A stretch of DNA of 64,000 bases. It comes from an uncultured Candidatus Saccharibacteria bacterium (GTDB lineage: Bacteria > Patescibacteriota > Doudnabacteria > UBA920). The notes beneath the pieces were generated by a model. The model was not told the origin of the DNA and searched no databases. It saw only the letters and a list, made by a program, of their open reading frames with translations. The stretch is from the NCBI GenBank assembly GCA_964617815.1, contig CAZTXY010000001.1, forward strand, positions 67,120 through 131,119, read 5' to 3'. Numbering within the stretch: position 1 is the stretch's first letter; each line of letters starts with the position of its first letter. Shown piece by piece: positions 6,575 to 27,958 of this stretch. The position numbers and the translations under genes were made by a program.

Positions 6575-8519
6575 TATTATATCTGTTCTCTGCCCACCAT
6601 TGTAGCGTGCTATTTACAATTGGTACAGCGGCTACATCTCCACCTCCACCTGCCTCAACTAACACTGTCATAACTATTTCTGGATTTTCAAAAGGCGCAT
6701 ATGCTGTAAACCATGCATGAGTACGACTTGGATCACTGCCGTCAAACTGCGAAGTCCCAGTTTTTCCCGCACTACTAATAGGCAAGGTGTTAAGTCTTCT
6801 TCCAGAGCCAGCCAAAATTGTCTGCCTCATTCCTTCTTGAATAATCTTAATATTTTTATCACTGGCAAATTTTTCAATTCCAACTGCTGACTCAAATTTT
6901 TTAATAACTTGTTCGTTTGCATCAACCACTGAGAAGAGCAACTGTGGGCGCATCCCGACTCCATTATTTGCAAATAAAGCTGTCATTGTCGCAATTCGAA
7001 GTGGCGTTACAAGCATATCCCCCTGCCCAATTCCCACATGATAGGTGTCACCTAAATACCACTTTCCTGCAATTGGATCATTTTTATAGTACTCACCTTT
7101 CCACTGCGGATCAGGAACAAGTCCAAATTTTTCCCCTTCTAGATCTAAGCCTGTTGTTTTTTGTAATTCAAACTTACGATAATAATCTGATAACTGAACA
7201 ATCCCCATACCAGAAACCGGCGAACTTGGATGGCCCCCACTCACGGTATAAAAATATATATCGCTACTCTGGGCAATCGCACTCCTAACTGTCATTGGTC
7301 CAAGTCCATCGCGCTTCCACCCATAAAAATTATAACTTTGTGCAGGATTAAACTGATTAGGAATAACCAACACGCCTCGGTCAACTATTGTTGTATTTTC
7401 TGTGACAATGTTATTTTCTAGCGCAGCCAATCCCACCATTGGCTTGACCGTTGAACCAGGTGGGTAGGTTCCACTAATTGCTCTGTCAAAAAGTGGTAAA
7501 GTTTTGTCGGTAATTAAACTTTGATAGTCTGCCTGTGATATTCCATGAGCAAAAAGATTATTATTAAACCCGGGGAGGGAAAGCAGTGCTAACACAGCTC
7601 CAGTTCTTGGATCTAATGCAATAGCTGCTCCACGAATACGAGGAGAAAGCTTGATGAATTCTTGATAGATATGTTCCTGTAATTCTTTGTCTATTGTTAA
7701 ACTAATTGTATTGCCTGGTTTTGGGTCTAACGTTCCAAGAACATTTACCGGACGCCCAAGGGCGTTAACTTCAACACGCTCTTGACCATTGGTACCACGT
7801 AAATATTTTTCATAACTCAACTCAATCCCTGCCTTACCTATATAATCAGAAGCTTGATAGCCTTGGTCGCGAAGATCCTTAAGCTCGTTTTCATTTACGA
7901 TCCCCGCATAACCAAGAACATGTGAAAACATTTCAGGATTTTTATAGTCACGCACAGGAATGCTCTTAATAGAAAAGCCAGGAAATTCAAGAGCTCTTGT
8001 TTCAAATAATATTGCTTCTTGCACCGCGACATCTTGCTTTATAACTACTGGTTCAAGGGAACTATTTCCAGACCGGGCGACAAGAGTTTTTGCCTCTTGT
8101 TCATCAAAGTTAAAAACGCCAGACAAGAGAGTTACTAATTCCGGCACCCCTTCTTTGGGTAAATCGAAAGGGGTTGCGACTAAGTTAAAACTAGCTGTAT
8201 TTTCAGCTAAAGTTTTTCCAAAACGGTCGAGCAGCAGCCCCCGCGGAGCCAAGATTACTCCAGAGCGCAACCGGTTTTCTTCAGCCATAACTCGATAGGT
8301 AGAACCTTCAATAATTTGCAGACCAAAAAGTCTTATAACTAAGACCGAAACAGAAGCAAAAAAGATTCCAATTATCCAAAAGGTGCTTTGCTTCGTCCGT
8401 ATTCCTTCGTAGAAGCCTTCAACTTGAGATAGGCTGTCTACTGCGGCTTCATCAAAATCCAAACCAGAATGCTCTGGTGTTTGGCCAAGGGTTGATTGTG
8501 TCTTGAAAGGATCAGTCAT
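6570..8519 (-). CDS. mrdA: penicillin-binding protein 2 (peptidoglycan D,D-transpeptidase)
   Basis: TM anchor, dimerisation domain, and a transpeptidase domain with the STVK motif. It lies downstream of mreBCD. Confidence 0.85.
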   Translation of the reverse strand: MTDPFKTQSTLGQTPEHSGLDFDEAAVDSLSQVEGFYEGIRTKQSTFWIIGIFFASVSVLVIRLFGLQIIEGSTYRVMAEENRLRSGVILAPRGLLLDRFGKTLAENTASFNLVATPFDLPKEGVPELVTLLSGVFNFDEQEAKTLVARSGNSSLEPVVIKQDVAVQEAILFETRALEFPGFSIKSIPVRDYKNPEMFSHVLGYAGIVNENELKDLRDQGYQASDYIGKAGIELSYEKYLRGTNGQERVEVNALGRPVNVLGTLDPKPGNTISLTIDKELQEHIYQEFIKLSPRIRGAAIALDPRTGAVLALLSLPGFNNNLFAHGISQADYQSLITDKTLPLFDRAISGTYPPGSTVKPMVGLAALENNIVTENTTIVDRGVLVIPNQFNPAQSYNFYGWKRDGLGPMTVRSAIAQSSDIYFYTVSGGHPSSPVSGMGIVQLSDYYRKFELQKTTGLDLEGEKFGLVPDPQWKGEYYKNDPIAGKWYLGDTYHVGIGQGDMLVTPLRIATMTALFANNGVGMRPQLLFSVVDANEQVIKKFESAVGIEKFASDKNIKIIQEGMRQTILAGSGRRLNTLPISSAGKTGTSQFDGSDPSRTHAWFTAYAPFENPEIVMTVLVEAGGGGDVAAVPIVNSTLQWWAENRYNK

Positions 8520-8522
8520 ATT

Positions 8523-9050
8523 TTAGAGCCTAAACCGGTTAGTAAAACGAGTAGAAAATTGCGTAGCTTTCAAAACCAAAAAATATAAAGGATAAACTAA
8601 TAATAAATGATACAACGTTTGCCACAACAGCACTCTCACAATTAATCCAAAGGTTATAGTAATCACTGGGATATGCAGTACTGCTAATAAAAGTGAGATG
8701 AGCCAAAAACCTAAAATTCCTAATACACTGCTAACTGCGGTAACAACCAATAAATACTTCCCAGCATTGCTTGGCAACAAGACCTGGCTAAACAACCAAT
8801 GCACTCCTAGCGCAATGAGTGTAAAAATCACCGCAAATACTCCGGGTAAACCACCGCTAGCAAAGTCTAACCATATGCCAAGCAAAAAGGCAATGACTAA
8901 GCTTTCTCTTTGAGTTCCAACAATTGCTATTAAAATTGCTAAAACTAAAAATATATTTGGTGCTATCGAAAAAAGCGGCAAGTAAATAAAAACACTTGAC
9001 TGCAAAATTACACAAAAAAGAAAAATTAATGTATAAATTATATACTTCAT
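8523..9050 (-). CDS. mreD: rod shape-determining protein MreD
   Basis: Polytopic membrane protein positioned between mreC and mrdA. Confidence 0.65.
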   Translation of the reverse strand: MKYIIYTLIFLFCVILQSSVFIYLPLFSIAPNIFLVLAILIAIVGTQRESLVIAFLLGIWLDFASGGLPGVFAVIFTLIALGVHWLFSQVLLPSNAGKYLLVVTAVSSVLGILGFWLISLLLAVLHIPVITITFGLIVRVLLWQTLYHLLLVYPLYFLVLKATQFSTRFTNRFRL

Positions 9051-9056
9051 TAAAAA

Positions 9057-9851
9057 CTATTTAACTACAAATACAAAATCAAGATCGTTAAAACGAATTG
9101 GACTTTTCACTGTCATTTTTTTAAATAAATCGCTAGGCCGAGAAACTAACTCCCCCAACTCTCCCACAATAATATTTTTTGGAATCTGACTTATTCCTGC
9201 AGTCACCAATATTTCTCCTGACTTTAATTCTGAATTTTGTGGCACAAGATCAAAAACTAAACTGCTTCCAAGAGTTCCTCTGACAACTCCTGAAACTTCT
9301 CCCCCACTAACCACTGCATCAACAGATGATTGCGAGCTTGAAAGCAATACCACTGTGCTAGTTAGGTTGCCTACATAAATAATTTTGCCTACTAAATAAT
9401 TACTAGAAACAACAGGCATACCAACTTGGATATTTTTATTTTTTCCACAGTTAATAATCATCGCATCTGTAACTGACTGCGGGTCGATAGATAAAACACT
9501 ACAAGGCTCTAAACTAAAACGATTTTCTCTCACAAATCCTAACTCCACCCTTAGAGTATCGTTTTCTTGCTTGTATTGATTAAGTAAGACTACCGTATTT
9601 TGAAGTTCACTAACCTTAGCTCTAAGTTCTCCGTTTTCATTTGCAATACTTCGCAATCTATATATTGTTGAAAAGAAATTTTGTATTGGTCTTGCAACCT
9701 TGCTAGTCACCCTTGTGATAGGACGCGGAACTGCCAATATTGCGTATCTAACAGGATCCAGCCAGCCCACTCGATACAACAACCCTAAAATGACGAGGAG
9801 CACCAAGCACCCAAAGACGACAGCAAAAGTTTTTGAGTAAATAAAATTCAT
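9057..9851 (-). CDS. mreC: rod shape-determining protein MreC
   Basis: TM anchor, a coiled-coil, and a beta-rich C-terminal domain. It follows mreB. Confidence 0.8.
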   Translation of the reverse strand: MNFIYSKTFAVVFGCLVLLVILGLLYRVGWLDPVRYAILAVPRPITRVTSKVARPIQNFFSTIYRLRSIANENGELRAKVSELQNTVVLLNQYKQENDTLRVELGFVRENRFSLEPCSVLSIDPQSVTDAMIINCGKNKNIQVGMPVVSSNYLVGKIIYVGNLTSTVVLLSSSQSSVDAVVSGGEVSGVVRGTLGSSLVFDLVPQNSELKSGEILVTAGISQIPKNIIVGELGELVSRPSDLFKKMTVKSPIRFNDLDFVFVVK

Positions 9852-9856
9852 TAACG

Positions 9857-9923
9857 AGTCCTTAGTTCTTAGTGCTTATTACTTAGTCGCACTGTATCTC
9901 TGAGGACTGAGGACTAAGCACTT
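9857..9923. repeat. tandem heptamer array (CTTAG/CTGAGGA units)
   Basis: Reads agtccttag ttcttag tgcttat tacttag ... ctgagga ctgagga ctaagca. The two halves are partly inverted relative to each other. Confidence 0.6.
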
Positions 9924-9928
9924 TGTAT

Positions 9929-10984
9929 CTACCTTGGGATCTTACCAAAGTCTGTTGGAACCAAAACATCTTTAAGCATTTCCAGATCTTCCACCACTAC
10001 TCCAGTTCCGCGCACTACACATGTTAGGGGGTCGTCGGCCACAGTAACTAAAATTTTTGTCTCTTCATGAAGAAGTGTATCTAGTCCACGCAATAACGCC
10101 CCGCCACCAGCAAGGACAATCCCCTTATGCATAATATCAGAAATTATTTCTGGAGGAATTTCTTCAATAACTGATTTCACACTATTAACAATGGTTCGCA
10201 CCGATGTAGACAAAGCCTCCCTGACTTGCGAATCTGTAATTGTAACTTCTTTTGGTAGTCCTGTAACTAAATCTCTGCCCCGCATATGAGCAGATAAAGG
10301 CTCTGGCAATGGAAAAGCCGAACCAACTTGAATTTTAATGTCCTCGGCCGTGCGCTCACCTAATAATAAATTAAAATTATCACGCGCATACTGAATAATA
10401 TTTTGGTTCATCTCATCACCTGCAACCCGAACGCTCTTTGCCACCACCACGCCACCAAGGGACAGTACTGCAATTTCCGAAGTGCCACCGCCAATGTCGA
10501 TAATTAAACTTCCTTGCGCATCTTGCACTGGCAGACGCGCGCCAATGGCCGCAGCCATTGGTTCCTCAATTAGAAAAGCTTGGCGCGCTCCAGCATTTAT
10601 AGTTGCGTCTTGTACAGCACGTTTTTCTACCTCAGTCACGCCTGAAGGAATTCCTACCACCACTCGCGGACGTCTCAAAAAAGTATAAGTTTTATTGTGA
10701 ACTTTATCGATAAAATATCGAAGCATAGCTTCAGTAACTTCAAAGTCAGAAATTACTCCATCAACAAGCGGGCGAGTTGCCACAATATGGCTTGGCGTAC
10801 GGCCAACCATCCGGCGAGCTTCACTACCAATAGCCACAATCTGTTTAGTACGCTGGTTAACCGCCACCACAGATGGTTCATTGATAACAATACCCTTGCC
10901 TTTAACGTAGACGAGGGTATTGGCAGTTCCAAGATCTATACCAATGTCCTTGGAAAATCGGCTGAATAATGGGTCAAGAATCAT
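9929..10984 (-). CDS. mreB: rod shape-determining protein MreB
   Basis: Actin-like ATPase with the DLGTANT and LAGGGALL motifs. Confidence 0.95.
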   Translation of the reverse strand: MILDPLFSRFSKDIGIDLGTANTLVYVKGKGIVINEPSVVAVNQRTKQIVAIGSEARRMVGRTPSHIVATRPLVDGVISDFEVTEAMLRYFIDKVHNKTYTFLRRPRVVVGIPSGVTEVEKRAVQDATINAGARQAFLIEEPMAAAIGARLPVQDAQGSLIIDIGGGTSEIAVLSLGGVVVAKSVRVAGDEMNQNIIQYARDNFNLLLGERTAEDIKIQVGSAFPLPEPLSAHMRGRDLVTGLPKEVTITDSQVREALSTSVRTIVNSVKSVIEEIPPEIISDIMHKGIVLAGGGALLRGLDTLLHEETKILVTVADDPLTCVVRGTGVVVEDLEMLKDVLVPTDFGKIPR

Positions 10985-12240
10985 GTTTGAAGGTTTTTAA
11001 AATAATCTAATACAGTTGCTAATGGAATACGCGTTGAACTCTCTTGATTACGAAGTTTTATTTCAACTTCAGCATCTGCCAAAGTTTTACTCGAAACAAT
11101 GACGCGATATGGGATGCCGATTAAATCGCTGTCTGCAAATTTTTCCCCGGCCGATTTATCACGGTCATCGTACAACACTTCAATGCCGGCAGTTTGCAAA
11201 TCCCTATAAAGAGCGTCCGAAGCTGTTGTGACTTCTGCGCCATCCTTGCCAGCAATAGCTACAATATGCACTTTAAACGGAGCTAAGCTTTCTGGCCAAA
11301 TAATTCCATTGTCGTCATGAGAAACCTCCACGACCGTACCCATAACACGGCCAAGGCCAATTCCGTAAGAGCCCATCACTACAAAATTTTGCTTACCAGT
11401 TTGATCAGTGTATTTTAAATTAAAAGCTTCAGAGTATTTTGTTCCCAAAGGAAAAATATTTCCCACTTCAACCGATTTCTTCTTGGTTACTTTTGCACCA
11501 CATTTTGGGCATGGACTATCTTCAGATAATTTTGAGACCTCATGATTTTCAGCATAGTCGCAAGACTCGCAGGCAAAAATAGTATCCTCACCCACTTCTG
11601 TCTCAACTTGAAATTCATGGGTGAAATTTGCAGTAAACTCTCCGCCCGGAGCAAGGGTGTAGTATGCTTTCAAACCACAGCGTTTAAAAATATTACTGTA
11701 CGCCTTAGCAACTCTTTCATAATAGTTCATCAGATCGTCATCGCTATCATGAAAACTATATAAATCTTTCATCATAAACTCGCGCCCGCGAAGCAAACCA
11801 GATTTTGCACGGGCCTCATTCCTAAATTTAGTTTGAATTTGATAAGCTGAGAATGGCAAATCTTTATACGAATTTATAAAACCAGTGGCAATTTCTGCAA
11901 TAATTTCTTCATGAGTCCAGCTGATATTATAATTTGGTTCTTTATCTTTTCCTTCTACAACTTTAAACACAACATCCACATCCCAGCGACCAGTCGCCTG
12001 AAGATAATGTTTATCGTGCAGAGCAGGCATGAACATTTCCTGCCCGCCAATGGCATTCATTTCTTCGCGAATAATTGCAGCAATTTTTTGCATCACGCGC
12101 CAACCAATTGGTAAATAAGAATAAATCCCAGCGGAATTTTTATAAACAAAACCACCCTGCTCAAGCAGTCTGGCGTTTACAGAAACGTCATCTTTTGGTG
12201 ATGTTTTGCTAGTTTTTAAAAAATATGATGATTGTCGCAT
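10981..12240 (-). CDS. proS: prolyl-tRNA synthetase
   Basis: Class II aaRS catalytic core plus a C-terminal anticodon-binding domain. It overlaps mreB by 4 nt. Confidence 0.9.
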   Translation of the reverse strand: MRQSSYFLKTSKTSPKDDVSVNARLLEQGGFVYKNSAGIYSYLPIGWRVMQKIAAIIREEMNAIGGQEMFMPALHDKHYLQATGRWDVDVVFKVVEGKDKEPNYNISWTHEEIIAEIATGFINSYKDLPFSAYQIQTKFRNEARAKSGLLRGREFMMKDLYSFHDSDDDLMNYYERVAKAYSNIFKRCGLKAYYTLAPGGEFTANFTHEFQVETEVGEDTIFACESCDYAENHEVSKLSEDSPCPKCGAKVTKKKSVEVGNIFPLGTKYSEAFNLKYTDQTGKQNFVVMGSYGIGLGRVMGTVVEVSHDDNGIIWPESLAPFKVHIVAIAGKDGAEVTTASDALYRDLQTAGIEVLYDDRDKSAGEKFADSDLIGIPYRVIVSSKTLADAEVEIKLRNQESSTRIPLATVLDYFKNLQT

Positions 12241-12246
12241 GAATAA

Positions 12247-12280
12247 AGTACTCTGTACTAAGTACTAGGTACTCAGTACT
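12247..12280. repeat. tandem heptamer array AGTACTN x5
   Basis: Reads agtactc tgtacta agtacta ggtactc agtact. It lies between the proS start and the rseP stop. Confidence 0.7.
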
Positions 12281-12287
12281 ATAATAT

Positions 12288-13445
12288 TTAACTACCAAAT
12301 AATTTACTGATAATTCGGCCAACCCCACCAAGACTACTTACATCTTTGACTGTGATAACGGCCATGAGTAGTAATAGTAGCAAAAATCCGGCAGTGTTCG
12401 CTAGTTGCTCAAATTTTTGATTATTTCTCTTTCGCCTAATTTTCTCAATAATTAAGAACAAAACTCGACCACCGTCTAAGGCAGGAAAAGGTAAACTGTT
12501 AAGAATAGCTAAATTAAGCGATAAAAAAGCTGTAAACTGGACTAGATAAATAAAGCCCAGATCTGCCACCTGCCCTGTAAGCTGGGCAATTTTCACTGGC
12601 CCACCTAAACTATCTAAGCCCACGCCTTTGCTAAAGAGCTGATACATCCCTGTAAAAATGGCGCCGAGCTGAGAAATAGTTGTTCGGCCACCCTCCCAAA
12701 TAGCTTGCACTACAGGAAACTTTAACTTCCCAATCGTAGCAAGGGCAATTCCTGTTGGTCCCTGACCAGCTGGAGGTTCACTATTCGACTGCACTACTAA
12801 TTTTTGCTCTTGAGTAATACGCTTAATATTAAACTCAAAGGCCTGCCCTTTATTTGAAAAAATATATTCCTTTAACTCTGGTACCGTCGCAAATTTTTCG
12901 CCGTTAACTCCAGTGACAATATCACCAGCCAAGAGTCCGGCTCGACTTGCTGGTGAGTCTGGGCTAACTTCAATAATTGCCAGCTGAGCATCCCTAACTT
13001 GCGCATGTTTTCCTAAATCCTGCGTGTCATCGTAAGCTACTGGCAGTCCATACATGTAGCCTGCACTAAACAGCACCCAAGCGAGTACAACATTCATTAA
13101 TACTCCGCCAAGTAAAGTAAGCAACCTTGGGAAAAAAGGTTTGTTGATAAAACTTTTTGGATCGCTTTCTGATTCATTATTTTCACCAACAATTTTTACA
13201 AACCCGCCAAGTGGAATCCAGTTAATTGAATAAACTGTTTTTTCTTTGTCGATTGGATCTTTGTGACCCCACAGAAATTTAAATTTTCCACCCAACTTTT
13301 GAATACCAACTAAACGTGGCGGAAAACCAAATCCAAACTCATCAACTTTCATGCCACTTTTTTTGGCAATCAAAAAATGCCCTGCTTCGTGGACAAAGAC
13401 TAATACCCCCAAGATTATTATAAAAATCAAAATTGTTATTAACAT
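12288..13445 (-). CDS. rseP: site-2 protease (RseP-like M50 metalloprotease with PDZ domain)
   Basis: Has the HEAGHF zinc motif and a PDZ domain, and is polytopic. Confidence 0.85.
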   Translation of the reverse strand: MLITILIFIIILGVLVFVHEAGHFLIAKKSGMKVDEFGFGFPPRLVGIQKLGGKFKFLWGHKDPIDKEKTVYSINWIPLGGFVKIVGENNESESDPKSFINKPFFPRLLTLLGGVLMNVVLAWVLFSAGYMYGLPVAYDDTQDLGKHAQVRDAQLAIIEVSPDSPASRAGLLAGDIVTGVNGEKFATVPELKEYIFSNKGQAFEFNIKRITQEQKLVVQSNSEPPAGQGPTGIALATIGKLKFPVVQAIWEGGRTTISQLGAIFTGMYQLFSKGVGLDSLGGPVKIAQLTGQVADLGFIYLVQFTAFLSLNLAILNSLPFPALDGGRVLFLIIEKIRRKRNNQKFEQLANTAGFLLLLLLMAVITVKDVSSLGGVGRIISKLFGS

Positions 13446-13454
13446 AAAGGCTCC

Positions 13455-13473
13455 GAGTACTTAGTACTTAGTT
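13455..13473. repeat. tandem heptamer AGTACTT x2
   Basis: Reads gagtacttagtacttagtt. It lies between the rseP start and the frr stop. Confidence 0.55.
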
Positions 13474-14029
13474 AAACAGTCATTACTTCTTTTTCTTTAT
13501 CTTCGGCAACAGACTTAATCTCGCTATTATAGCTATCAATCATATCTTGAACTTTTTTTTGAGCATGGACAACATCGTCCTCGCCAATATGACCATCTGT
13601 TTCGGCTTTTTTAATAGCCTTCATTAAATCTTCACGGGTTTTGCGCACACCAATCTTAGCCTGTTCGGCAATTTGCCCTAACAGCTTAACCATCTCTTTT
13701 CGACGCTCTTCGGTCATTGCCGGTAAATTAATCCTAATTACAATTCCATCATTGCTTGGTGTAAAACCTAAATTAGCTACCATTATCCCTTTTTCAATGG
13801 CTTGCATCTGACTTTTATCCCAAGGACTAATGGTTAAAGTTTTTGCATCGCTTGCAGTGACGCTGGCAACTTGCTGAAGTGGAACTTTCGTCCCATAACT
13901 TTCCACCATAACTGTTGCAAGCAAAGCTGGATTAGCACGACCCGTGCGAATACTAGAGAGCTCATGATGGTAATGGTCTAGGTGCTTTTGGAATTCTTGT
14001 TTATGCTCGTTTATTATAGATTCAATCAT
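13472..14029 (-). CDS. frr: ribosome recycling factor
   Basis: 185 aa with typical RRF sequence. Confidence 0.9.
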   Translation of the reverse strand: MIESIINEHKQEFQKHLDHYHHELSSIRTGRANPALLATVMVESYGTKVPLQQVASVTASDAKTLTISPWDKSQMQAIEKGIMVANLGFTPSNDGIVIRINLPAMTEERRKEMVKLLGQIAEQAKIGVRKTREDLMKAIKKAETDGHIGEDDVVHAQKKVQDMIDSYNSEIKSVAEDKEKEVMTV

Positions 14030-14056
14030 ATTTTGTAATTAGTAGCTTAATTAGTA

Positions 14057-15115
14057 TTACTGTATATATATACCAGCAAACGCCTTTTGAGGCAACCTTG
14101 GATCAACTAAAATCACTTGAATATATCCAGTTGTTGGAATGCTCTGAGTTTGCCAAGACGAACCGTCGTCTATAGTTTTATAGATAGTCGCTCCTGCACC
14201 TACATACAAAACATTTGGACTAGACTGGCTTACCGCCAAACTTCGTATCACCACCCCTTTAGTATTTAAGGGTAAGTTTAAGGCTTCCCAACTGTTTCCA
14301 CCATCCACGCTTCGAAGTAGAGCAGTTTCAGCAGCAAGATAAATTCTTTGCCCACTACTATCTATTGCGGCTTGATAAAATGGACCAGCTTGCTTGTTTG
14401 CTAAAAATTGCGAAACCTGACTTCCTTGCGCAAATAGTGACGTTGTAAGATCAGAGACTGTAGCCCCTCCATCAACCGACTTCAGTAATCCTTTTCTCTG
14501 TAAGAGAATAAATAAACCACTGTCATTCCAATACAACCGCTGAATTTGAGTTTGAAGTTTTTGCAAAAGTTTCCAATGCTGGCCACCGTCCGTGCTAGAT
14601 ATAAGTTGTCCCGACTGCAGACCAATTACCACTTCACTAGAATTTCGCGGATTAATCACCACGGTTCGCACAGGATCACTTTTTGCCTCTTCATTATATA
14701 TTTCTTGCCAAGACTTTCCCCCGTCGCGCGTTACTAAGGCTTTACCATGTCCACCAAATGTCCCAGCCGCATAAATAACACTACTGTCGGTTGGATGAAA
14801 AGCAATGTCATAGACAATAATTTTTGACAAAATTTGTTGCCAAGTACCACCACCGTCGTCACTTTTATAAACTGCTCCGGCAAAACTACCAAGCACAAGC
14901 TTATTACTGTCGAAGGGATCGAACACTAAGGACGACACAGCAACTCCGCTTAAACTTGCATCACTATCTTTTAATTTATTTGAAAATTGCCAGTCTGCGC
15001 CACCATTGGTAGTTAAAACAAGCCCTGCTCCACTAACCGAACGAAAACTGTTGCACCCAGCAGACAACAACAGTAGTGGAACTATTAGTATAGCAAATTT
15101 TAGACCCTTAGACAT
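14057..15115 (-). CDS. BNR/Asp-box repeat beta-propeller lipoprotein (Ycf48/sortilin-like)
   Basis: Lipobox LLLSAGC. It has repeated S/T-x-D-G-G-x-x-W Asp-box motifs. Confidence 0.6.
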   Translation of the reverse strand: MSKGLKFAILIVPLLLLSAGCNSFRSVSGAGLVLTTNGGADWQFSNKLKDSDASLSGVAVSSLVFDPFDSNKLVLGSFAGAVYKSDDGGGTWQQILSKIIVYDIAFHPTDSSVIYAAGTFGGHGKALVTRDGGKSWQEIYNEEAKSDPVRTVVINPRNSSEVVIGLQSGQLISSTDGGQHWKLLQKLQTQIQRLYWNDSGLFILLQRKGLLKSVDGGATVSDLTTSLFAQGSQVSQFLANKQAGPFYQAAIDSSGQRIYLAAETALLRSVDGGNSWEALNLPLNTKGVVIRSLAVSQSSPNVLYVGAGATIYKTIDDGSSWQTQSIPTTGYIQVILVDPRLPQKAFAGIYIQ

Positions 15116-15125
15116 AAATTTTATT

Positions 15126-15974
15126 TTAGTGCATTAATAATTTTTGCAACACTAACTTCTTATTCAAATTTGCCTTAAGCCCATTTAGGGCTAAAAGGCA
15201 ACCGGACATTAAGCTAACTAATTGGGTGTTTGTCTTTAACATTGTCCGTGTCTTTGCCAACAACCTTGCTAAAATAGCAGCTAAATCTTCTTGCTCTAAG
15301 TCCGCCAATTGATTGATCGTTAAAATTTTTGTGGCCGCATCGCTCATGTAAGCATCAAATAATAAATTTGCTTTCTGTTCAATAATACTAGAAGCTTCTG
15401 GATTAGTAACTAACTCTCGCAAACAAGATGCTCTTCCCTGACTTTGGGCTAAGGCATCCTCGGAGGCCTGCCAACCCTTGAGCAAAGCAATAGCGCGTAA
15501 ATTACTACTAGAAAGTTCCGAAAAAATAACAACCTGACAACGTGACACGATGGTAGGTAAAAGATTTTTCTTATTTGAAATCAAAATTAGCACAGTACTT
15601 GGACTTGGTTCTTCAAGTGTCTTTAAAAGCGTATTGGCGGAAGTGAGATTTAAGTTCTCAGCACCATCAATAATAATAACTTTATACTGGCCCACAAATG
15701 GACGGCCACCTAATTCGGAAATAACTACTCTAATATGTTCGACGCTAGTGTCGTCTGTGACAGTGACTAACTTAAAATCTGGGTGAGCTAATAGATTATC
15801 TGCCGCAAGAAGCTGTGCGGCAAAGTCCTGCGCTAAACAAAGCTTTCCAACCCCTTCTGGCCCGGCAAATAAAAATGCATGCGAAATTTGCCCAGAGTTA
15901 AGCTGTAACTCCAAATTTTGCTTCACAAATTCATGCCCAATGACATTCCAAGACAAATTACCAGAAGATTTCAT
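15126..15974 (-). CDS. holB: DNA polymerase III subunit delta prime
   Basis: Clamp-loader AAA+ fold with GPEGVGK. Its size (282 aa) fits delta prime. Confidence 0.7.
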   Translation of the reverse strand: MKSSGNLSWNVIGHEFVKQNLELQLNSGQISHAFLFAGPEGVGKLCLAQDFAAQLLAADNLLAHPDFKLVTVTDDTSVEHIRVVISELGGRPFVGQYKVIIIDGAENLNLTSANTLLKTLEEPSPSTVLILISNKKNLLPTIVSRCQVVIFSELSSSNLRAIALLKGWQASEDALAQSQGRASCLRELVTNPEASSIIEQKANLLFDAYMSDAATKILTINQLADLEQEDLAAILARLLAKTRTMLKTNTQLVSLMSGCLLALNGLKANLNKKLVLQKLLMH

Positions 15975-16053
15975 ATCTTCATTATATCACCATTTATTGT
16001 TTAAAAAAACCTCTTTTTAAGAAAGTTTTCACTTATTGAGTAACATTTATAAT

Positions 16054-16590
16054 TTACTCACTAACAGTAATTGACCCTGTACTTGATGGGCTCAAGTGGT
16101 CGTGAAATTTCCAAGTCCCAAGCTTGGTAAATTTAAAATCAAAAGACTTTCCAGGAGCAATGGCGGCCTTGGCGTCAAACTCGGGATACTCGGTATGAGT
16201 TGGGTGGTCGCTGGATGCTGGCCAAAAATCCTGCTGGCTCTTATTGCGAAAAATTACAATGTCACCAAGTTTAATAGAAACTGTTGCAGGAGAAAAACTC
16301 TTTCCATTAAAATCTATTTCTGTGACTTGAATATCCAACCCTTCAATATCTGATTCATCACTAAAACGAGTTTCGTTTGGAAAAGACGGTGCATCTTTTG
16401 GAGCATCTGCTGTTAAAGGCATTTCTGGGGATTGTTTTTTTTCACTCGAACTATCGCTTTTAGCAGATGAGTTTTCTAAAGAGTCTTCAGTCGTCGGAGC
16501 CAATACTTTATTTTTTTGCTGGTCATAGAAATAATATCCTCCAAAAATTATAGCAAGAGCAAAAAAACCAACTATCAGTTTTGTTTTCAT
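16054..16590 (-). CDS. secreted cupredoxin-like domain protein
   Basis: N-terminal TM or signal peptide followed by a low-complexity linker. The C-terminal beta-sandwich carries His-rich HTEYPEF...HDH motifs. Confidence 0.4.
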   Translation of the reverse strand: MKTKLIVGFFALAIIFGGYYFYDQQKNKVLAPTTEDSLENSSAKSDSSSEKKQSPEMPLTADAPKDAPSFPNETRFSDESDIEGLDIQVTEIDFNGKSFSPATVSIKLGDIVIFRNKSQQDFWPASSDHPTHTEYPEFDAKAAIAPGKSFDFKFTKLGTWKFHDHLSPSSTGSITVSE

Positions 16591-16661
16591 ATAATTGTTA
16601 AGCTTTACTAATAAAAGGTATACTATAGTGTAACATAATTAAACTTTAAAGCTTAGAAATT

Positions 16662-17639
16662 ATGGGAGTTCGAACTAAAATTATTGCTATTATCGGACCA
16701 ACTGCCAGCGGAAAAAGTGAGTTGGCTGTAGAAATTGCCAAAAAACTCAACGGTGAAATTATTTCAGCAGATAGCCGTCAAGTCTATCGCGGCATGGATA
16801 TTGGAACTGGTAAAGTGACGGGAGCCTGGCATAGCATTCCATGCTCCTGTCATCCTGAGCTTGTCGAAGGATCTCTCCATAATTCTCAAAGCTCTAAAAA
16901 AATATACCTTTACAAATCTATTCCTCATTACGGTATTGATATCGCCAGTCCTAGCACCCAATGTTCAGTAGCGAAGTTTCAAAGTTACGCCAAAAAAACT
17001 ATCGCTGAAATTATTGCTCAAGGAAAAATTCCAATAATTTGCGGGGGCACTGGTCATTGGGTAGATGCAGTATTGTTCGATCAAAACTTGCCAGCTGTTA
17101 AACCCGACCTTAAACTTAGAAAAAAGCTTGAAAAACTTAATACTGCCCAGCTTTTTAATAAATTAACAAAACTAGATCCGCGCCGCGCAGAAAATATTGA
17201 CGCAAAAAATCCACGGCGTTTAATTCGCGCGCTTGAAATTATTGCGAGCACCGGAAAACCAGTTCCGGCATCAAATGCAGAAACAAAATACGATGTGCTC
17301 TGGCTTGGTATTGCTCACGACAAAATCATCTTAGATAAACGAATCGATAAACGATTGGATGGATGGCTAAAATCTGGCATGATCAAAGAAGTAACAAACT
17401 TACATGCAAATGGCTTGTCTTGGAAACGGCTTGAGGAATTTGGCTTAGAATACAAATTTGTTGCACAATTTCTTCAACACAAACTTTCCATAATTGAAAT
17501 GAGGACTTTAACCGCTACCGCAATCAAACAATACGCCAAACGACAGATGACTTGGTTTAAGCGCAATAAAAATATTCACTGGATAAAATCAAAACTAGAG
17601 GCCTTATCCCGAGCCAAAAACTTTTTACATCACAATTAA
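16662..17639 (+). CDS. miaA: tRNA dimethylallyltransferase
   Basis: P-loop GPTASGKS and IPHYGIDI. It contains an extra segment of about 25 aa encoded by a MITE-like repeat fragment. Confidence 0.9.
   Translation: MGVRTKIIAIIGPTASGKSELAVEIAKKLNGEIISADSRQVYRGMDIGTGKVTGAWHSIPCSCHPELVEGSLHNSQSSKKIYLYKSIPHYGIDIASPSTQCSVAKFQSYAKKTIAEIIAQGKIPIICGGTGHWVDAVLFDQNLPAVKPDLKLRKKLEKLNTAQLFNKLTKLDPRRAENIDAKNPRRLIRALEIIASTGKPVPASNAETKYDVLWLGIAHDKIILDKRIDKRLDGWLKSGMIKEVTNLHANGLSWKRLEEFGLEYKFVAQFLQHKLSIIEMRTLTATAIKQYAKRQMTWFKRNKNIHWIKSKLEALSRAKNFLHHN
16847..16875 (+). repeat. MITE-like element fragment (left half) inside the miaA coding sequence
   Basis: ctgtcatcctgagcttgtcgaaggatctc matches the element at 31287 at 27 of 29 nt. 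Confidence 0.7.
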
Positions 17640-17656
17640 AAAAGCAAATCAAAAAA

Positions 17657-17695
17657 CCATCTCTAATTCGCGCGGATTAGAGATGGTTTTTGTTT
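17657..17695 (+). terminator. Rho-independent terminator after miaA
   Basis: 11-bp stem ccatctctaat/attagagatgg followed by tttttgttt. Confidence 0.8.
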
Positions 17696-17696
17696 A

Positions 17697-17819
17697 CAGA
17701 ACTTATGGGCTTGGATTGAGTACGAGGCATTTTGCGAGGACTTTTGGAGGCGTAGTCAGACTACGGCGACAAAAACCTCAGCAAAATAACAAAGTAATCG
17801 GCCAAGCCCATAAGTTCTG
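17697..17819. repeat. 123-bp element with perfect 18-bp terminal inverted repeats
   Basis: cagaacttatgggcttgg at 17697-17714 is the exact reverse complement of ccaagcccataagttctg at 17802-17819. Confidence 0.85.
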
Positions 17820-17821
17820 TT

Positions 17822-19321
17822 TTATTCTGATAATTTTTTCTTAAGCAGTTCATTAACCACAGAAGGATTACCTTTTCCTTTTAACTCCTTCATTGCCATT
17901 CCAACCAGAAAACCAAAACTTTTCTCTTGCCCAGCTTTATAGTCAGTCACGGCTTTTTCGTTTTCTAAAATAACTTTTTCCACGGCTTGCAAAATTGCAC
18001 CTTCGTCGCTAACTTGCTCGAGCCCTAAATCCAAAACAATATTATCTGGCTCGCCGCCTTTTTCATACATTACTTTAAAAACTTGCTTGGCTGCACTACC
18101 AGAGATTTTTCCTTGTTCAATCAATTTCACCAATTCTGCCATATTTTCTGCACTAACAAGTGATTCATCTGGATTTTTATGTTCTGCGTTCAATAATGCG
18201 CTAAAATCCTGCAAACACCAGTTTGCCGCTGTTTTAATCAACTTAGATCTATCTAAACCATCACCATCTTGCTCTATCCACTCGTCAAGCTCACTAATCA
18301 CATCTTCAAAGTAATAGTTAAGGTCTTTCCACACAAGCAAGTTCTCAATATCTGCTTCCGGCAAACTATATTCATCTTTAAAACGAATTCGCTTGCTAGC
18401 CGGCAATTCCGGTAAGTTGCTACGCAAATCATCTAAATATTCTTTTGTGAAATGCAAAACTGGTAAATCTGGATCTGGGAAATAACGATAATCGTTGGCC
18501 TCTTCTTTACTTCGTTGTTCAACGGTGATGTTATCTTTTTCGTTCCAACCCATAGTAACCTGTTTTGGCATGCCGCCATTTTCCAAAATTTCTGTCTGGC
18601 GTTTAATTTCGTAATTAATTGCGCTTTCTGCAAATTTAAACGAGTTGATATTTTTGACTTCAACTTTGTACTTAGGAAGAGTTGTCTCCCCTGGCTTACG
18701 CACCGAAATGTTTGGCTCACAGCGCATTGTCCCTTTTTCCATATCTGCGACACCTGCTCCAACGTAACGAACAATACTGCGAAGTTCCTGCAAAAAAATT
18801 CGTGCTTCTTCAGCACTTTCAATATCCGGCTCGGTGACAATTTCCAAAAGTGGACAACCAGCGCGGTTATAGTTTACTAAAGAATACGGCAAGCCCTCAG
18901 GATGAATATTCTTTCCTGCATCTTCTTCTAGGTGAGCACGAGTAATCCGAATGCGCTTAGGTTTTCCTTGTACCATAATATCAACATAACCTGCTTGCGC
19001 AATTGGCTCATCGTACTGAGAAATTTGATACCCTTTTGGAAGGTCTGGATAAAAGTAATGCTTACGGTCGAACTTCGAATATTCGTCAATTCTACAATTA
19101 AGTGCCAAGCCAACCATAACACCCAAGCGCACAGCTTCTTGGTTCACAACTGGAAGTGTTCCAGGTTCGGCAGTCACCACCTCATCTATATTTACGTTTG
19201 GCTCAACAGTGTCAGGATTATTTGGCGCGCTCGAAAACATCTTGCTCTTGGTAGCAAGCTGAACGTGAATTTCCATGCCAATCACCGGCCTATATGTATT
19301 TAATTCTTTTTCTTCTGCCAT
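17822..19321 (-). CDS. gatB: Asp/Glu-tRNA amidotransferase subunit B
   Basis: 499 aa with typical GatB sequence and a C-terminal YqeY-like domain. Confidence 0.95.
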   Translation of the reverse strand: MAEEKELNTYRPVIGMEIHVQLATKSKMFSSAPNNPDTVEPNVNIDEVVTAEPGTLPVVNQEAVRLGVMVGLALNCRIDEYSKFDRKHYFYPDLPKGYQISQYDEPIAQAGYVDIMVQGKPKRIRITRAHLEEDAGKNIHPEGLPYSLVNYNRAGCPLLEIVTEPDIESAEEARIFLQELRSIVRYVGAGVADMEKGTMRCEPNISVRKPGETTLPKYKVEVKNINSFKFAESAINYEIKRQTEILENGGMPKQVTMGWNEKDNITVEQRSKEEANDYRYFPDPDLPVLHFTKEYLDDLRSNLPELPASKRIRFKDEYSLPEADIENLLVWKDLNYYFEDVISELDEWIEQDGDGLDRSKLIKTAANWCLQDFSALLNAEHKNPDESLVSAENMAELVKLIEQGKISGSAAKQVFKVMYEKGGEPDNIVLDLGLEQVSDEGAILQAVEKVILENEKAVTDYKAGQEKSFGFLVGMAMKELKGKGNPSVVNELLKKKLSE

Positions 19322-19386
19322 ATATTTATCTTAAATTTTAGGATAGTTCTTCTGACAACTTTTCCATAGCTCTTAATTACTTATTC

Positions 19387-19839
19387 TTAGACCAGGCATA
19401 ATGTTATAAATTGATACCAATCTTTACAATTTTGAGAAAAGAAAATATAAAATACGAGGCCCAAAATAACAGCTATGACCAGAATGCCCAAATATCCCAA
19501 TGCCTTTTTCCACATAACTGTATTATTTGTTAGCTTTAATAAGAAGATCATAACGGGATACAACACAAATAAATTAATCACTGCGCCTACGTATGGCAAT
19601 AATACTGATACCTCTCCAAGACTAAGTTTTTCAGTAATAACTATTACTAAAGTCCAAGGTAAACCCAATATAACAAGAACAAATAAAGCCGCAGCTCCAT
19701 CCAGCCCATCCTGACCTGTAGCTTTCATAAAATAAATAGTCAAAAATACAAGTGAGACAAAAAATGGTAACGGAATCCATTTCTTCAGCCCGAGACTACT
19801 CTTAACTGCTACTGGTTTTAAAATATTTTGTTCTTCCAT
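19387..19839 (-). CDS. hypothetical polytopic membrane protein
   Basis: Start trimmed to MEEQNIL. It has 4-5 TM helices and lies between gatA and gatB. Confidence 0.45.
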   Translation of the reverse strand: MEEQNILKPVAVKSSLGLKKWIPLPFFVSLVFLTIYFMKATGQDGLDGAAALFVLVILGLPWTLVIVITEKLSLGEVSVLLPYVGAVINLFVLYPVMIFLLKLTNNTVMWKKALGYLGILVIAVILGLVFYIFFSQNCKDWYQFITLCLV

Positions 19840-19849
19840 ATTTGACCAA

Positions 19850-21307
19850 TTATAATTTAGGATGTTTCTTGTGCCAATCAGTAGCTTGTTGATAGGCATA
19901 ACCCACATTAAAGATTTTCTGTTCGCCCCACTGCGGTCCAATAATCTGCAAACCAACTGGTAAGTCTTCGCTGAATCCACAAGGAACTGACAATGCTGGA
20001 AGGCCTGCGAGGGACCCCGGAATGTTCAGCTGATCTGCAATATAACCAAATAATGGATCCTGCGCCGCATGTCCAAGCTTTGCCGCAACGCTTGGTGTAG
20101 ACGGGCAAGCCAAGACATCAACCTGCTTAAAGACTTCCTCAAACTCATTGATAATCAAACGTCGAACTCTTTGAGCTTTTTTATAATACGCATCATAGTA
20201 ACCAGCACTCAAAACATAGGTGCCTGTCATAATTCTGCGCTTAGCTTCATCACCAAAACCTTCTGCACGAGACTTTTGGTAAACTTCCATCAAATCTTTG
20301 GCTTCGTCAGTAACATGACCGTAACGAATGCCATCGTAGCGCGCCAAGTTAGAGCTAACCTCACTTGGGCAAACAATCGCATAGACTAAGGATCCGTATT
20401 TGGTGTTGGGCAAATCAACTTCAACCAAAGTTGCTCCTTGTTTTTCCAGTTCTTTGATCGCATCCATAACAGCCTGCTTAACGCCTGCTTCCATGCCTTC
20501 TATAAAGTACTGTTTAGGGATACCAACTTTTACTCCTTTTAAGTCTGTGTTTAAATTTTTGAAATAATTTTCTACGTCCCGATGTCCAGTCGTGCCATCT
20601 TTAGGATCCTGTCCAGACATTATTTCTGCAATAATCGCCAAGTCACTAACAGAGTAAGCCACCGCACCAATGCTGTCTAAAGACGAACCCATGGCCGCAA
20701 CCCCGTAACGACTAACTCGGCCGTAGGTTGGTTTCCAGCCAGAAATTCCAGTTAAGCTGGCTGGCTGGCGAATACTGCCACCGGTTTCAGTGGCTAATGC
20801 CCACGGACTAAGTCCCGCACTAACGCTTGCTGCCGAACCACTAGAAGAACCACCAGGCATGCGAGTGGTGTCCCATGGATTTTTTGTCGCGCCATAAGCA
20901 GAAGTTTCTCCGCTCGAGCCATGCGCAAACTGATCAAGATTAGTTTTACCAAGCAAAACTGCTTTTTGTTCTTTAAGTTTGGCGATAACCGTAGCGTCGT
21001 ATGGAGGAATGTAACCTTCTAAAATCTTTGAAGCTGCGGCGGTTTGAATACCTCGAGTCATAAATAAATCTTTTGCAGCAAACGGGATTCCGGTTAGAGG
21101 GAAATTCTCGCCAGGACTTGCGATAAATTCATCTGCTTCTTTAGCCTGCTCCAAAGCTTCTTTTTCTGTCACTGTAATAAAACTGTTTAACTTTGGATCA
21201 AGTTCTTTTATGCGTGCCAAAAAATACTTCGTCAATTCTTGTGACGAAACTTTTTTCTCATCAAGAAGTTTGCGTAATTCAGTTAATTCAAGAAATTCGT
21301 AATTCAT
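19850..21307 (-). CDS. gatA: Glu-tRNA(Gln) amidotransferase subunit A
   Basis: Amidase signature GGSSSGSAA. Confidence 0.95.
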   Translation of the reverse strand: MNYEFLELTELRKLLDEKKVSSQELTKYFLARIKELDPKLNSFITVTEKEALEQAKEADEFIASPGENFPLTGIPFAAKDLFMTRGIQTAAASKILEGYIPPYDATVIAKLKEQKAVLLGKTNLDQFAHGSSGETSAYGATKNPWDTTRMPGGSSSGSAASVSAGLSPWALATETGGSIRQPASLTGISGWKPTYGRVSRYGVAAMGSSLDSIGAVAYSVSDLAIIAEIMSGQDPKDGTTGHRDVENYFKNLNTDLKGVKVGIPKQYFIEGMEAGVKQAVMDAIKELEKQGATLVEVDLPNTKYGSLVYAIVCPSEVSSNLARYDGIRYGHVTDEAKDLMEVYQKSRAEGFGDEAKRRIMTGTYVLSAGYYDAYYKKAQRVRRLIINEFEEVFKQVDVLACPSTPSVAAKLGHAAQDPLFGYIADQLNIPGSLAGLPALSVPCGFSEDLPVGLQIIGPQWGEQKIFNVGYAYQQATDWHKKHPKL

Positions 21308-21317
21308 GTCTGTGCAA

Positions 21318-21348
21318 CTAGTACTGAGTACTAAGTACTTAGTACTTG
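21318..21348. repeat. tandem heptamer array AGTACTN x4
   Basis: Reads ctagtactg agtacta agtactt agtactt gg. It lies between the gatA start and the gatC stop. Confidence 0.7.
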
Positions 21349-21352
21349 GGAT

Positions 21353-21634
21353 TTATAATATCGCTTTAACTTTATAATACCCATCTTTAATTTCCGGCGC
21401 ACTCTTTAAAATCTCATCGCGATTATTGGCAGAGCCCACCACATCTGGACGCTGAACATTTTCAAGCCCTGTGACTGAAGCGACAATTTCTAAGCCTTCA
21501 GTGTCAACTTTTTTTAACTCTTCGACATAGTCTAAAACAGCAGATAAGTCTTTTTGAAACTTTTCCACTTCTCCCTCGCGAAGTTCTATCCGCGCAAGCT
21601 TTGCAATTTTTTGGACTTCTTCTGTCGATAACAT
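21353..21634 (-). CDS. gatC: Asp/Glu-tRNA amidotransferase subunit C
   Basis: Start trimmed to MLSTEEVQKIAKLARIEL. Confidence 0.85.
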   Translation of the reverse strand: MLSTEEVQKIAKLARIELREGEVEKFQKDLSAVLDYVEELKKVDTEGLEIVASVTGLENVQRPDVVGSANNRDEILKSAPEIKDGYYKVKAIL

Positions 21635-21654
21635 GGACAAAGTATAACAAATTG

Positions 21655-21695
21655 CTGGAAAAATCAAAAGCCCCCCATTTGGAACTTGGAGGGCT
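21655..21695 (-). terminator. Rho-independent terminator after ORF 21715..22236
   Basis: Stem agccctcc/ggggggct followed by tttgattttt on the minus strand. Confidence 0.55.
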
Positions 21696-21714
21696 TTAAA
21701 TTAATCAGCTCAAT

Positions 21715-22236
21715 CTATTTTGTTTCAGCACTAGGTGCTTCTTGGGTTACAGAGACATTAATCTCAATTGTACTTACTGTTTCTGACTTGTTCATCACTA
21801 TTGTAATTTGAGAGTCGCCTTTGCTTGCAACCAAAATTTTGCGAGTAGCTTCATTTATATCATTTTCAATTGACCATGAAGCTTTCTTAAAGTAATCCTT
21901 ATATATTTTATAATTCTCGTCTAAAGTTTTTTTGGTTTCAAAAACTCGTGTTGACTGCATCACTCCACTAACAGTAGTGGCATTGTAATTTTGTGTAACT
22001 TTTGCTCCCGACTCAAGTGGTAAATCGGTTGGAAACTTTTCTGGGAGTTTGCTTGACTCGACAGCAGTTTGGCTTACCTGAATTTTTGGCGTTTGGTTAT
22101 TTACCGACTTCCCACCAACATCCACCTTGTCACTATTTTTATAAAACTTATTAAAAGCCAACGCCCCGCCTGCTAAAATAACCATAAAGATTATCAACCA
22201 AACGAATTTTTTTGTTTGGGGTGATTGTTCGAGCAT
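21715..22236 (-). CDS. hypothetical membrane-anchored secreted protein
   Basis: 173 aa with an N-terminal TM helix. Confidence 0.5.
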   Translation of the reverse strand: MLEQSPQTKKFVWLIIFMVILAGGALAFNKFYKNSDKVDVGGKSVNNQTPKIQVSQTAVESSKLPEKFPTDLPLESGAKVTQNYNATTVSGVMQSTRVFETKKTLDENYKIYKDYFKKASWSIENDINEATRKILVASKGDSQITIVMNKSETVSTIEINVSVTQEAPSAETK

Positions 22237-26691: not shown

Positions 26692-27214
26692 CTTGCTTCC
26701 CTCCGTTTGAACTTTGAACCCCCACTTGCACTGACTTCCGATGAGTTTCGGAATATGTGAGAAGGTTACTGCTAACTGCTGGGTCCACCAGACCAACAGC
26801 AGTGCAAGCTGCTAAGCCGGCGTTGTGCAGTCCAGCTGAGTCAAGACCCAGCACGCAAACTGGCACACCTGGCGGCATTCGGACCATCGAAAGAAGTGAA
26901 TCCATGCCAGAAAGAATGTCAGCGCTTAGCGCCACACCAAAAACCTGCGCTCGGTTTGAAACATGCGAAGCAATTGCTCCGGGTAAGGCCGCCGCCATTC
27001 CAGCAACAGCAATAAACACGACCGTACCAGTCTGGAGCTTGTGCTCGCAGTACTGGCGCAAATCTTCGGGATTGCGGTGAGCGGAAATGATCGAAAGTTC
27101 CCAAGTGACTCCAACCCCGTTGAGGATTGGAAACAACTGAGACAATTTTACCATCTCCAAATCACTTGCACTCCCCAAAACAACAACCACGCTATGGCAA
27201 GCATCCAGAGACAC
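26684..27214 (-). CDS. purE: PurE-family mutase/carboxylase (N5-CAIR mutase or AIR carboxylase)
   Basis: VVVLGSASD, SAHRNP and AGMAAALPG align with PurE. The GTG start has AAGGAGG 5 nt upstream. Its TGA overlaps the purC ATG in ATGGATGA. Confidence 0.85.
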   Translation of the reverse strand: MSLDACHSVVVVLGSASDLEMVKLSQLFPILNGVGVTWELSIISAHRNPEDLRQYCEHKLQTGTVVFIAVAGMAAALPGAIASHVSNRAQVFGVALSADILSGMDSLLSMVRMPPGVPVCVLGLDSAGLHNAGLAACTAVGLVDPAVSSNLLTYSETHRKSVQVGVQSSNGGKQDG

Positions 27215-27266
27215 AACGCCCTCCTTGCTTCGCAGAGTTGCTCCTTGGAGCAGTAGAACCTGCCCT

Positions 27267-27295
27267 ATAGTAGAACACTGGCTTAAAAAAGGCAA
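27267..27295 (-). promoter_or_regulatory. candidate promoter TTGCCT-17-TACTAT for purE-purC
   Basis: It sits between the upstream terminator and the purE SD. Confidence 0.5.
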
Positions 27296-27309
27296 GATTC
27301 TCCTTCTTT

Positions 27310-27357: not shown

Positions 27358-27372
27358 TAAAACCAAAGCCGA

Positions 27373-27951: not shown

Positions 27952-27958
27952 CGCTTAT

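Follow-up and report, generated by a model that had tools for sequence, protein, structure and literature searches.

An in-frame arm of a palindromic repeat at the predicted tip of a surface hairpin in MiaA of a Patescibacteria genome

How does a piece of repeated palindromic DNA come to lie in frame within the gene of a tRNA-modification enzyme, and what has it done to the protein? The question is raised by miaA, the gene of tRNA dimethylallyltransferase, in a 64-kb stretch of DNA from an uncultured member of the Patescibacteria (contig CAZTXY010000001.1, positions 67,120 to 131,119), the whole of which is referred to here as the window. A first-pass annotation had proposed that a fragment resembling a MITE (a miniature transposable element with inverted repeats) was inserted in miaA without breaking the open reading frame (ORF), adding about 25 residues, and had called such an insertion in an essential enzyme unusual. 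Through comparison of the locus with its orthologs, with other copies of the repeat, and with predicted structures, we arrive at the view, to which we assign a probability of roughly 80%, that the insert is what is left of a selfish palindromic DNA element, translated and probably neutral, on a permissive hairpin tip.

The ORF is clearly MiaA by whole-length homology, by its motifs, and by its fold. In phmmer searches, the window protein matches the solved MiaA structures 2qgn/3exa (Bacillus halodurans structure) with E = 7e-54 and Escherichia coli MiaA (2zm5) with E = 5.6e-36, both alignments being broken in two and leaving query residues 55-85 unaligned. The Pfam family IPPT (PF01715) is present in its orthologs, and its AlphaFold model matches tRNA-bound E. 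coli MiaA (3foz/2zm5) with TM scores of 0.77-0.82 and a root-mean-square deviation of 3.8 (Foldseek). Across an alignment of 35 sequences including the query, G12, P13, T14, G17, K18, and S19 of the P-loop (GPTxSGK[ST], G12-S19) are invariant, as is D37-S38-R39-Q40, the D-S-x-Q motif whose Asp has a catalytic role (PMC5699536). The frame is intact over 325 codons, just as had been claimed. Because the catalytic core appears untouched, the enzyme with its insert most likely still makes i6A37. Calling it essential was an overstatement, since E. coli and Salmonella both survive with a null allele of miaA.

The similarity from which the question arose is real. The sequence CTGTCATCCTGAGCTTGTCGAAGGATCTC at 16847-16875 (+) agrees with 31287-31315 (+) at 27 of 29 nucleotides, with two mismatches, and 100 dinucleotide-preserving shuffles gave no match at all, the chance expectation for a 27/29 match being 0; the first-pass annotation had reported this match to the left half of the element at 31287, and both the match and its statistics stand. 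Copies in the window were located with a degenerate pattern and then by reading the sequence, which gave three intergenic inverted doublets and one intergenic singlet; beyond these, a loose pattern scan of the window for more degenerate copies returned only noise. Each doublet is a unit of ~29 nt in inverted repetition, with the termini CTGTCATCC...GGAATGACAG and a total length of 70-90 nt, and two of the three (41008-41087 and 55491-55580) fold far better as single-stranded DNA than shuffled controls. The unit itself consists of a head, GTCATCCYGAG, a variable loop, and a tail, CGARGGATC, and its intergenic form is usually an inverted doublet of 70-130 nt. The copy in miaA possesses the left terminus only, the right one being absent, and its 29 nt alone have no significant fold (-1.6 kcal/mol, z = 0.06). 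It is one arm, a half-element, of a repeat family that is represented at five or more sites in the 64 kb.

What the site looks like when empty can be seen in related genomes. The closest database proteins are Patescibacteria MiaAs, some of them labelled Doudnabacteria, and the contigs compared preserve the arrangement of genes at the locus (a cupredoxin-like gene, then miaA, gatB, and others); the MiaAs compared are therefore true orthologs. Between GMDIGTGK and IPHYGID, the usual loop of the close orthologs has 14 residues (VEGKWxxxxYxYKS), against 35 in the window. This holds for the nearest repeat-free syntenic orthologs, P0005-P0008 (loci L002 and L089), which are 68-75% identical to the window protein, so the similar-length loop that would have pointed to ancestral length variation is not found there. 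The extra segment was delimited by codon comparison and by the MAFFT insertion block, its ends being uncertain by ~6 nt (Table 1). Relative to these nearest empty-site orthologs, the net gain is 21 residues; it is 17 relative to the class of 18-residue loops, against which the extra block is C61-S77 (16842-16892), and 27 relative to the 8-residue loop that is canonical in bacteria (of the ITKKEMRG type, with PNAEELLA in E. coli). The earlier figure of about 25 was thus a fair estimate, although 21 is the number against the proper baseline, and the extra peptide that had been quoted between DIGTGK and IPHYGIDI was correct. The peptide string of the insert region is SIPCSCHPELVEGSLHNSQ.

The filled state is equally well represented. 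In the sister lineage L001, a complete element carrying both termini, CTGTCATCC...GGAATGACAG, occupies the same codon in frame, and directly shows the mobile repeat at this site; the left junction TGG CAT AnG nTT CCA TGn TCC TGT CAT CC is common to L001 and the window. The insert of the window also occurs in the JGI protein P0001 (95% identical) and in the three ENA contigs L003-L005; being present in four independent assemblies, it is not an assembly artefact. Compared with L003, the insert region is 95-97% identical, versus 79% for the gene as a whole. A special nucleotide-level constraint on the insert was considered on these grounds and dropped, as the 14-kb syntenic alignment reaches 95% identity or more in ~10% of its 90-nt windows (with stretches of 100%), because the two genomes are mosaic, and the conserved miaA patch is unexceptional among them. 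Over 6769-22209 of the window, mean identity to L003 is 86%, with stretches of 100% such as 18154-18655 and 12328-12506, and this mosaic suggests recent recombination between the two lineages.

Where the extra residues lie in the protein is indicated by structure prediction. In the AlphaFold model of the query (mean predicted local distance difference test score, pLDDT, 85.5), strands 55-58 and 80-84 bracket a low-confidence segment with pLDDT block means of 56 and 53 and values below 50 at residues 69-76. In the model of the empty-site ortholog P0005 (mean pLDDT 91.3), the corresponding hairpin, E55-57/E60-63, is predicted at pLDDT 87-93 and has a tight two-residue turn without insert. The extra residues are accordingly modelled at the tip of a clade-specific β-hairpin on the surface, with the MiaA core intact; whether the insert sits in a surface loop had been posed as a check, and the model, with low confidence in that part, places it there. 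Repeat-free loops following GMDIGTGK (P0001-P0120) cluster at 14, 18, and 22 residues, that is, in steps of four, as expected for a β-hairpin growing by two residues per strand; those of 18 and 22 residues are rich in Lys and Arg. The insert also yields H57, C61, C63, H64, and H73 (window 16830-16880, residues 57-73), which may be a coincidental metal-binding-like motif: the sister lineage P0003/P0004 retains the first four, with the next His four residues past H64 and not at position 73, and the pattern was not found in the more distant insert-bearing loops.

The genome of the window is one of many with a filled site. Loop lengths in 121 orthologs are 14 residues (41 proteins), 18 (28), or 22 (9), with a tail reaching 88, and repeat-type peptides such as HPELVEGS, HPERSEGS, and HPERAKRVEGS are present in the loop of 28 of the 121, one of which reads the repeat in another frame (LSSRADEGARDL). 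The same loop of P0052 contains a different repeat family (PPFKGGIRGG). An insertion of this kind is unusual for bacteria in general, but in this clade about a quarter of the close orthologs carry such repeat-derived peptides. In a neighbour-joining tree calculated with the loop masked, the repeat-bearing loops are scattered among those of 14 and 18 residues, and Fitch parsimony gives a minimum of 18 gains or losses with 'no repeat' as the root state, a number that conveys an order of magnitude and not a count, the tree being rough.

At the DNA level, at least three junctions can be distinguished in the MiaA loop, and in most repeat-bearing loops the repeat begins at one common nucleotide and is read in one common frame (C/R-H-P-E). 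The left junction, TTCCATnnTCCn followed by GTCATCC at loop nt 35 in that frame, is shared down to ~50% protein identity. We considered TTCCATnnTCC, the 5' junction TTCCATnnTCCn, as a part of the mobile element and rejected it, as it accompanies 0 of 264 other unit copies and is specific to miaA. The interior that separates the head GTCATCC from the tail GGATC has a different length and sequence in every lineage, taking the form of a singlet, a doublet, or a tandem array; L087 carries tandem copies of 42 nt, and in L211 two fresh units come after a first one that has decayed. Both of two models fit this recurrence: a single old insertion may act as a landing pad, its interior undergoing replacement, duplication, or deletion time and again, or fresh copies may keep entering at the same nucleotide.

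The repeat is not confined to this loop. Among the matches listed for more distant Patescibacteria, 58 of 80 loci have the canonical 8-residue loop, and a second insertion site is found in distant Patescibacteria in the MiaA loop after RLIRALEI...GKPVP, while other repeat-type peptides occur in some orthologs in a third loop, past query residue 250. A full element also lies in frame in the gene neighbouring miaA in L011; its product has UPF0004, Radical_SAM, and TRAM domains and is therefore a MiaB-type methylthiotransferase, so that a second enzyme of the i6A pathway carries the repeat. In an unbiased 1.2-Mb set of loci, 3 of ~7 full elements are inside long ORFs, from which it follows that in-frame residence within genes is a property of this repeat family, as it is of Rickettsia palindromic elements. 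Of the alternative frames, one hits TGA when the unit reads CCTGAGC and another gives the hydrophobic VILSLSKDL; the frame in use (hydrophilic C/R-H-P-E...E-G-S) may thus be explained in part simply by being stop-free and hydrophilic.

Outside this clade, at least 120 metagenome contigs (L090-L209), with GC contents of 0.29-0.67, contain an exact copy of the inner 25-mer of the unit, GTCATCCYGAGCTTGTCGARGGATC, often as inverted doublets 60-110 nt apart. Rfam has no family at gathering score in the window except two tRNAs, and none at the intergenic element; the sub-threshold matches of a metagenome doublet (AaHKsRNA41, miRNA precursors) were set aside as generic matches to a perfect hairpin. 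Literature searches with the exact DNA and peptide strings returned chance primer matches or nothing, and no name for the unit; a search combining Patescibacteria and palindromic repeats gave nothing relevant.

Table 1. The miaA locus, copies of the repeat, and the ortholog sites compared with it (window coordinates unless a locus is given).
Feature	Position	Strand	Remarks
miaA, tRNA dimethylallyltransferase, 325 aa, intact ORF	16662-17639	+	ORF list, phmmer, Pfam of orthologs, fold match
Clade-specific beta-hairpin loop V52-S86 between GMDIGTGK and IPHYGID, 35 residues	16815-16919	+	Loop extraction, codon print-out, model strands
Extra segment vs empty-site orthologs, ~63 nt, 21 codons, I59-K79	16836-16898	+	Codon comparison with L002 and L089, MAFFT insertion block
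Core repeat unit, one arm (singlet), frame C-H-P-E-L-V-E-G-S	16847-16875	+	27/29 to 31287-31315; 29/29 in L003-L005
Intergenic inverted doublet; left arm is best match to miaA copy	31287-31356		Pattern and sequence reading
Intergenic singlet GTCATTCTGAACCTACGAAAGGGTAAAGAATC	39640-39671	-	Pattern scan
Intergenic inverted doublet, termini CTGTCATCC...GGAATGACAG	41008-41087		DNA fold -14.2 kcal/mol, z = -3.5
Intergenic inverted doublet	55491-55580		DNA fold -18.0 kcal/mol, z = -4.7
Complete 93-nt element CTGTCATCC...CGGAATGACAG, both termini, same codon, in-frame	L001:3186-3278		Protein 76% identical
Empty site ...GGA AAA TGG CGC GGT AGT CAA TAT TTT TAC AAA...	L002, L089		Protein 73% and 69% identical; codon comparison
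Same 35-residue loop, 29-mer identical 29/29	L003-L005		Protein 79% identical; codon comparison
Unit head at loop nt 35, frame TGT/CGT CAT CCN GAG	Window, L003, L001, L087, L210, L212, L213		Decayed copy in L211
Unit head at loop nt 20, same frame as nt 35 (frame A)	L088		
Unit head at loop nt 45, different frame (frame B)	L086		
Full in-frame element, second MiaA loop, ...HCHPALDAGS...	L057:6745-6827		
Full in-frame element, second MiaA loop, ...LCHPGL...RLRGNDN...	L074:2579-2690		
Element fragment in different frame, second MiaA loop	L011:10608-10640		
130-nt full element in-frame (CHPERN...LRFGQNDK)	L011:8778-8907		In MiaB-type methylthiotransferase gene neighbouring miaA

In the account that we favor, an ancestor of this Patescibacteria lineage would have received a member of the palindromic repeat family at the tip of a surface β-hairpin of MiaA, and in the window genome only the left arm and some spacer would remain. 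This remnant would be transcribed and translated within MiaA in the one frame that is both stop-free and hydrophilic (C-H-P-E-L-V-E-G-S), resulting in a flexible extension of ~21 residues on a hairpin that in insert-free relatives is a tight two-residue turn. The insert would be a tolerated and roughly neutral passenger, leaving the catalytic core untouched. The data show the homology of the DNA, the empty and filled states among syntenic orthologs, the unbroken frame, and where the insert is predicted to lie; its translation, its neutrality, and the way in which it moved are the parts of this account that we infer.

Several points weigh against the account. Translation of the segment and activity of the enzyme are predictions from the sequence. 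Among the 30 ORFs of the 64-kb window scanned with Pfam, there is no transposase domain, no RAYT (Y1 transposase) gene, and no insertion sequence with matching termini that could be the parent. Beside the three intergenic doublets or the L001 element, no direct repeat can be seen, as judged without a closely matched pair of empty and filled sites. The protein database holds intact ORFs only, so that disrupted miaA alleles would go unseen. Finally, seven lineages with 50-79% protein identity have the unit head exactly at loop nt 35 and in the same frame, with synonymous positions that track the repeat consensus and show no drift. Simple neutral decay of a single old insertion does not predict this pattern, which hints instead at DNA-level maintenance, targeted re-insertion, or gene conversion.

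One alternative is that nothing was inserted and that the similarity reflects chance, a variation in length that is ancestral, or a chimera formed at the repeat during metagenome assembly. The range of loop lengths across the clade, from 14 to 88 residues, might seem to invite it, but we regard it as extremely improbable in view of the shuffles (0 of 100 with any match), the empty sites in the nearest syntenic orthologs, the L001 element, which is complete with both termini and occupies the same codon, and the identical insert in four assemblies. The empty and filled orthologs, taken together with the independence of those assemblies, exclude both an assembly artefact and ancestral length variation. 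If the insertion is accepted, the insert could still have been co-opted, the longer hairpin tip serving MiaA in binding of tRNA or a partner, or in regulation, such that selection on the protein explains both the recurrence and the frame. Of 25 repeat-bearing loops, ~24 indeed read the same frame (H-P-E...E-G-S), as do the full elements of the second MiaA site and of MiaB, the loop follows a few residues past the conserved DIGTGK motif near the active-site region, and the Lys/Arg-rich character of the repeat-free 18- and 22-residue loops would suit contact with RNA. We nevertheless think co-option improbable: a 14-residue hairpin suffices in 41 of the 121 close orthologs, each lineage has an insert interior of a different length and sequence, the segment is predicted to be disordered, and the bias in frame has a simpler cause in the TGA of one alternative frame and the hydrophobic peptide of the other.

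Somewhat less probable still is a role at the level of nucleic acid, as a protein-binding site or as a DNA or RNA hairpin acting in transcription, mRNA stability, or recombination, with translation being incidental. Such a role would agree with the exactness of the 25-mer across contigs of 29-67% GC, with the synonymous positions of the H, P, E, G, and S codons in MiaA loops, which follow the repeat consensus, and with the high identity of the insert region between the window and L003 relative to the gene. This last patch is, however, one of many of its kind in the alignment, the singlet alone lacks a significant fold, and Rfam offers no family at threshold, its weaker matches to the doublet being to generic hairpins. 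We therefore retain the neutral remnant on a permissive hairpin tip as the best explanation. A bolder reading is that the hairpin tip of MiaA has long served as a landing pad and is rewritten again and again by a repeat that is found far beyond the Patescibacteria, a proposal that we advance tentatively and on balance doubt. If true, it would imply ongoing site-specific replacement or gene conversion by some mobilisation machinery, which would be writing new peptide loops into MiaA (three loops) and MiaB of genome-reduced bacteria.

Other features of the window lie outside this argument. The stop codon of miaA is directly followed by a perfect stem-loop and then a T-run (aaaaaccatctctaattcgcgcggattagagatggttttt, 17651-17691); this structure, conserved inverted in L003, looks like an intrinsic terminator. 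A palindromic element that is ~124 nt long, its 18-nt terminal inverted repeats matching perfectly (CAGAACTTATGGGCTTGG), occupies 17697-17821 in the spacer between miaA and gatB and is the sole copy in the window; it is missing from the syntenic contig L003, where the alignment breaks exactly at its ends, and the two contigs form a filled/empty pair for a second, unrelated MITE-like element. The GC content is 0.52 at 26001-28000 compared to ~0.40 in the rest of the window, and genes resembling purC (SAICAR synthetase) and purE (AIR carboxylase) lie at 25843-27295, a segment that may have been horizontally acquired. A cluster on the minus strand at 42439-54118 is possibly a type IV secretion or conjugation-like system: it encodes a TraG/VirB4-like P-loop ATPase and a protein with an SLT transglycosylase domain, in addition to several large ORFs without Pfam matches (one of 1339 aa).

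Rickettsia offers the best-documented cases of selfish DNA lying in frame within housekeeping genes, and the same process would here be at work in the Patescibacteria, members of the candidate phyla radiation (CPR) that are likewise genome-reduced. The repeat unit, for which we found no name, is conserved exactly across very different bacteria, and would explain odd low-complexity peptides in CPR proteins such as HPERSEGS, HPELVEGS, and ...RNDK, segments that annotators and structure predictors should regard as repeat-derived. With an empty site, a half element, a full element, and tandem expansions, a single enzyme loop provides a tractable natural series, which could serve in studies of the tolerance, and perhaps the recruitment, of inserted DNA by proteins, and in the hunt for the mobilising enzyme.

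With respect to known systems, the intergenic copies have the terminal inverted repeats of MITEs, at 70-90 nt and with three doublets in 64 kb, and to that extent the first-pass label 'MITE-like' was apt. Bacterial MITEs are likewise small, non-autonomous, and numerous, and some are fused in frame to host ORFs, as described for Coxiella QMITE (PMC5896051), intragenic ERIC, and cyanobacterial MITEs (reviewed in PMC10969869). The miaA copy differs in lacking the right terminus, no target-site duplication was evident beside the copies compared, and the 30 window ORFs scanned included neither a parent insertion sequence for the family nor its transposase; the label is so far borne out only in part. 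The architecture resembles, by analogy, a doublet of repetitive extragenic palindromic (REP) sequences, or REPIN, at least as much as a classical MITE. Both families share an imperfectly palindromic unit of 25-30 nt, a typical arrangement in inverted doublets that fold into a long hairpin, and the occurrence of singlets; REPs have no obvious target-site duplication, and none was evident beside the copies compared here. REP sequences and their doublets (REPINs/BIMEs) are reportedly mobilised by RAYT transposases. REPs are extragenic by definition and their classical head is GTAG, whereas the copies in miaA of the window, in L001, L057, and L074, and in the MiaB gene of L011 are intragenic and in frame, and the head of the miaA family is GTCA.

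A third comparison is with the Rickettsia palindromic elements (RPEs; Ogata et al. 2000, reviewed in PMC10969869), short palindromic selfish DNA found in frame in housekeeping genes. As with the repeat of miaA, these occur in unrelated housekeeping genes as well as between genes, comprise multiple families, and give rise to extra peptide segments at fold-compatible positions, translation in our case being deduced from the sequence. The miaA locus has the corresponding traits, namely a repeat copy within an ORF without a break of frame, orthologs with an empty site, and a predicted fold-compatible position on the surface. It differs in its host, which belongs to the Patescibacteria and not to Rickettsia; in its shorter unit, with an arm of 25-30 nt, doublets of 70-130 nt, and a half-element in miaA; and in the spread of the exact unit, which is found in contigs of very different GC content and is not confined to one genus. 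In addition, the same codon position of one gene is filled in many diverged lineages, with differing interiors, a pattern that to our knowledge has not been described for RPEs. The likeness drawn here is one of description; we expect no relatedness in sequence and claim no membership in an RPE family. By analogy, the Rickettsia palindromic elements appear to be the closest known phenomenon to the in-frame repeat of MiaA.

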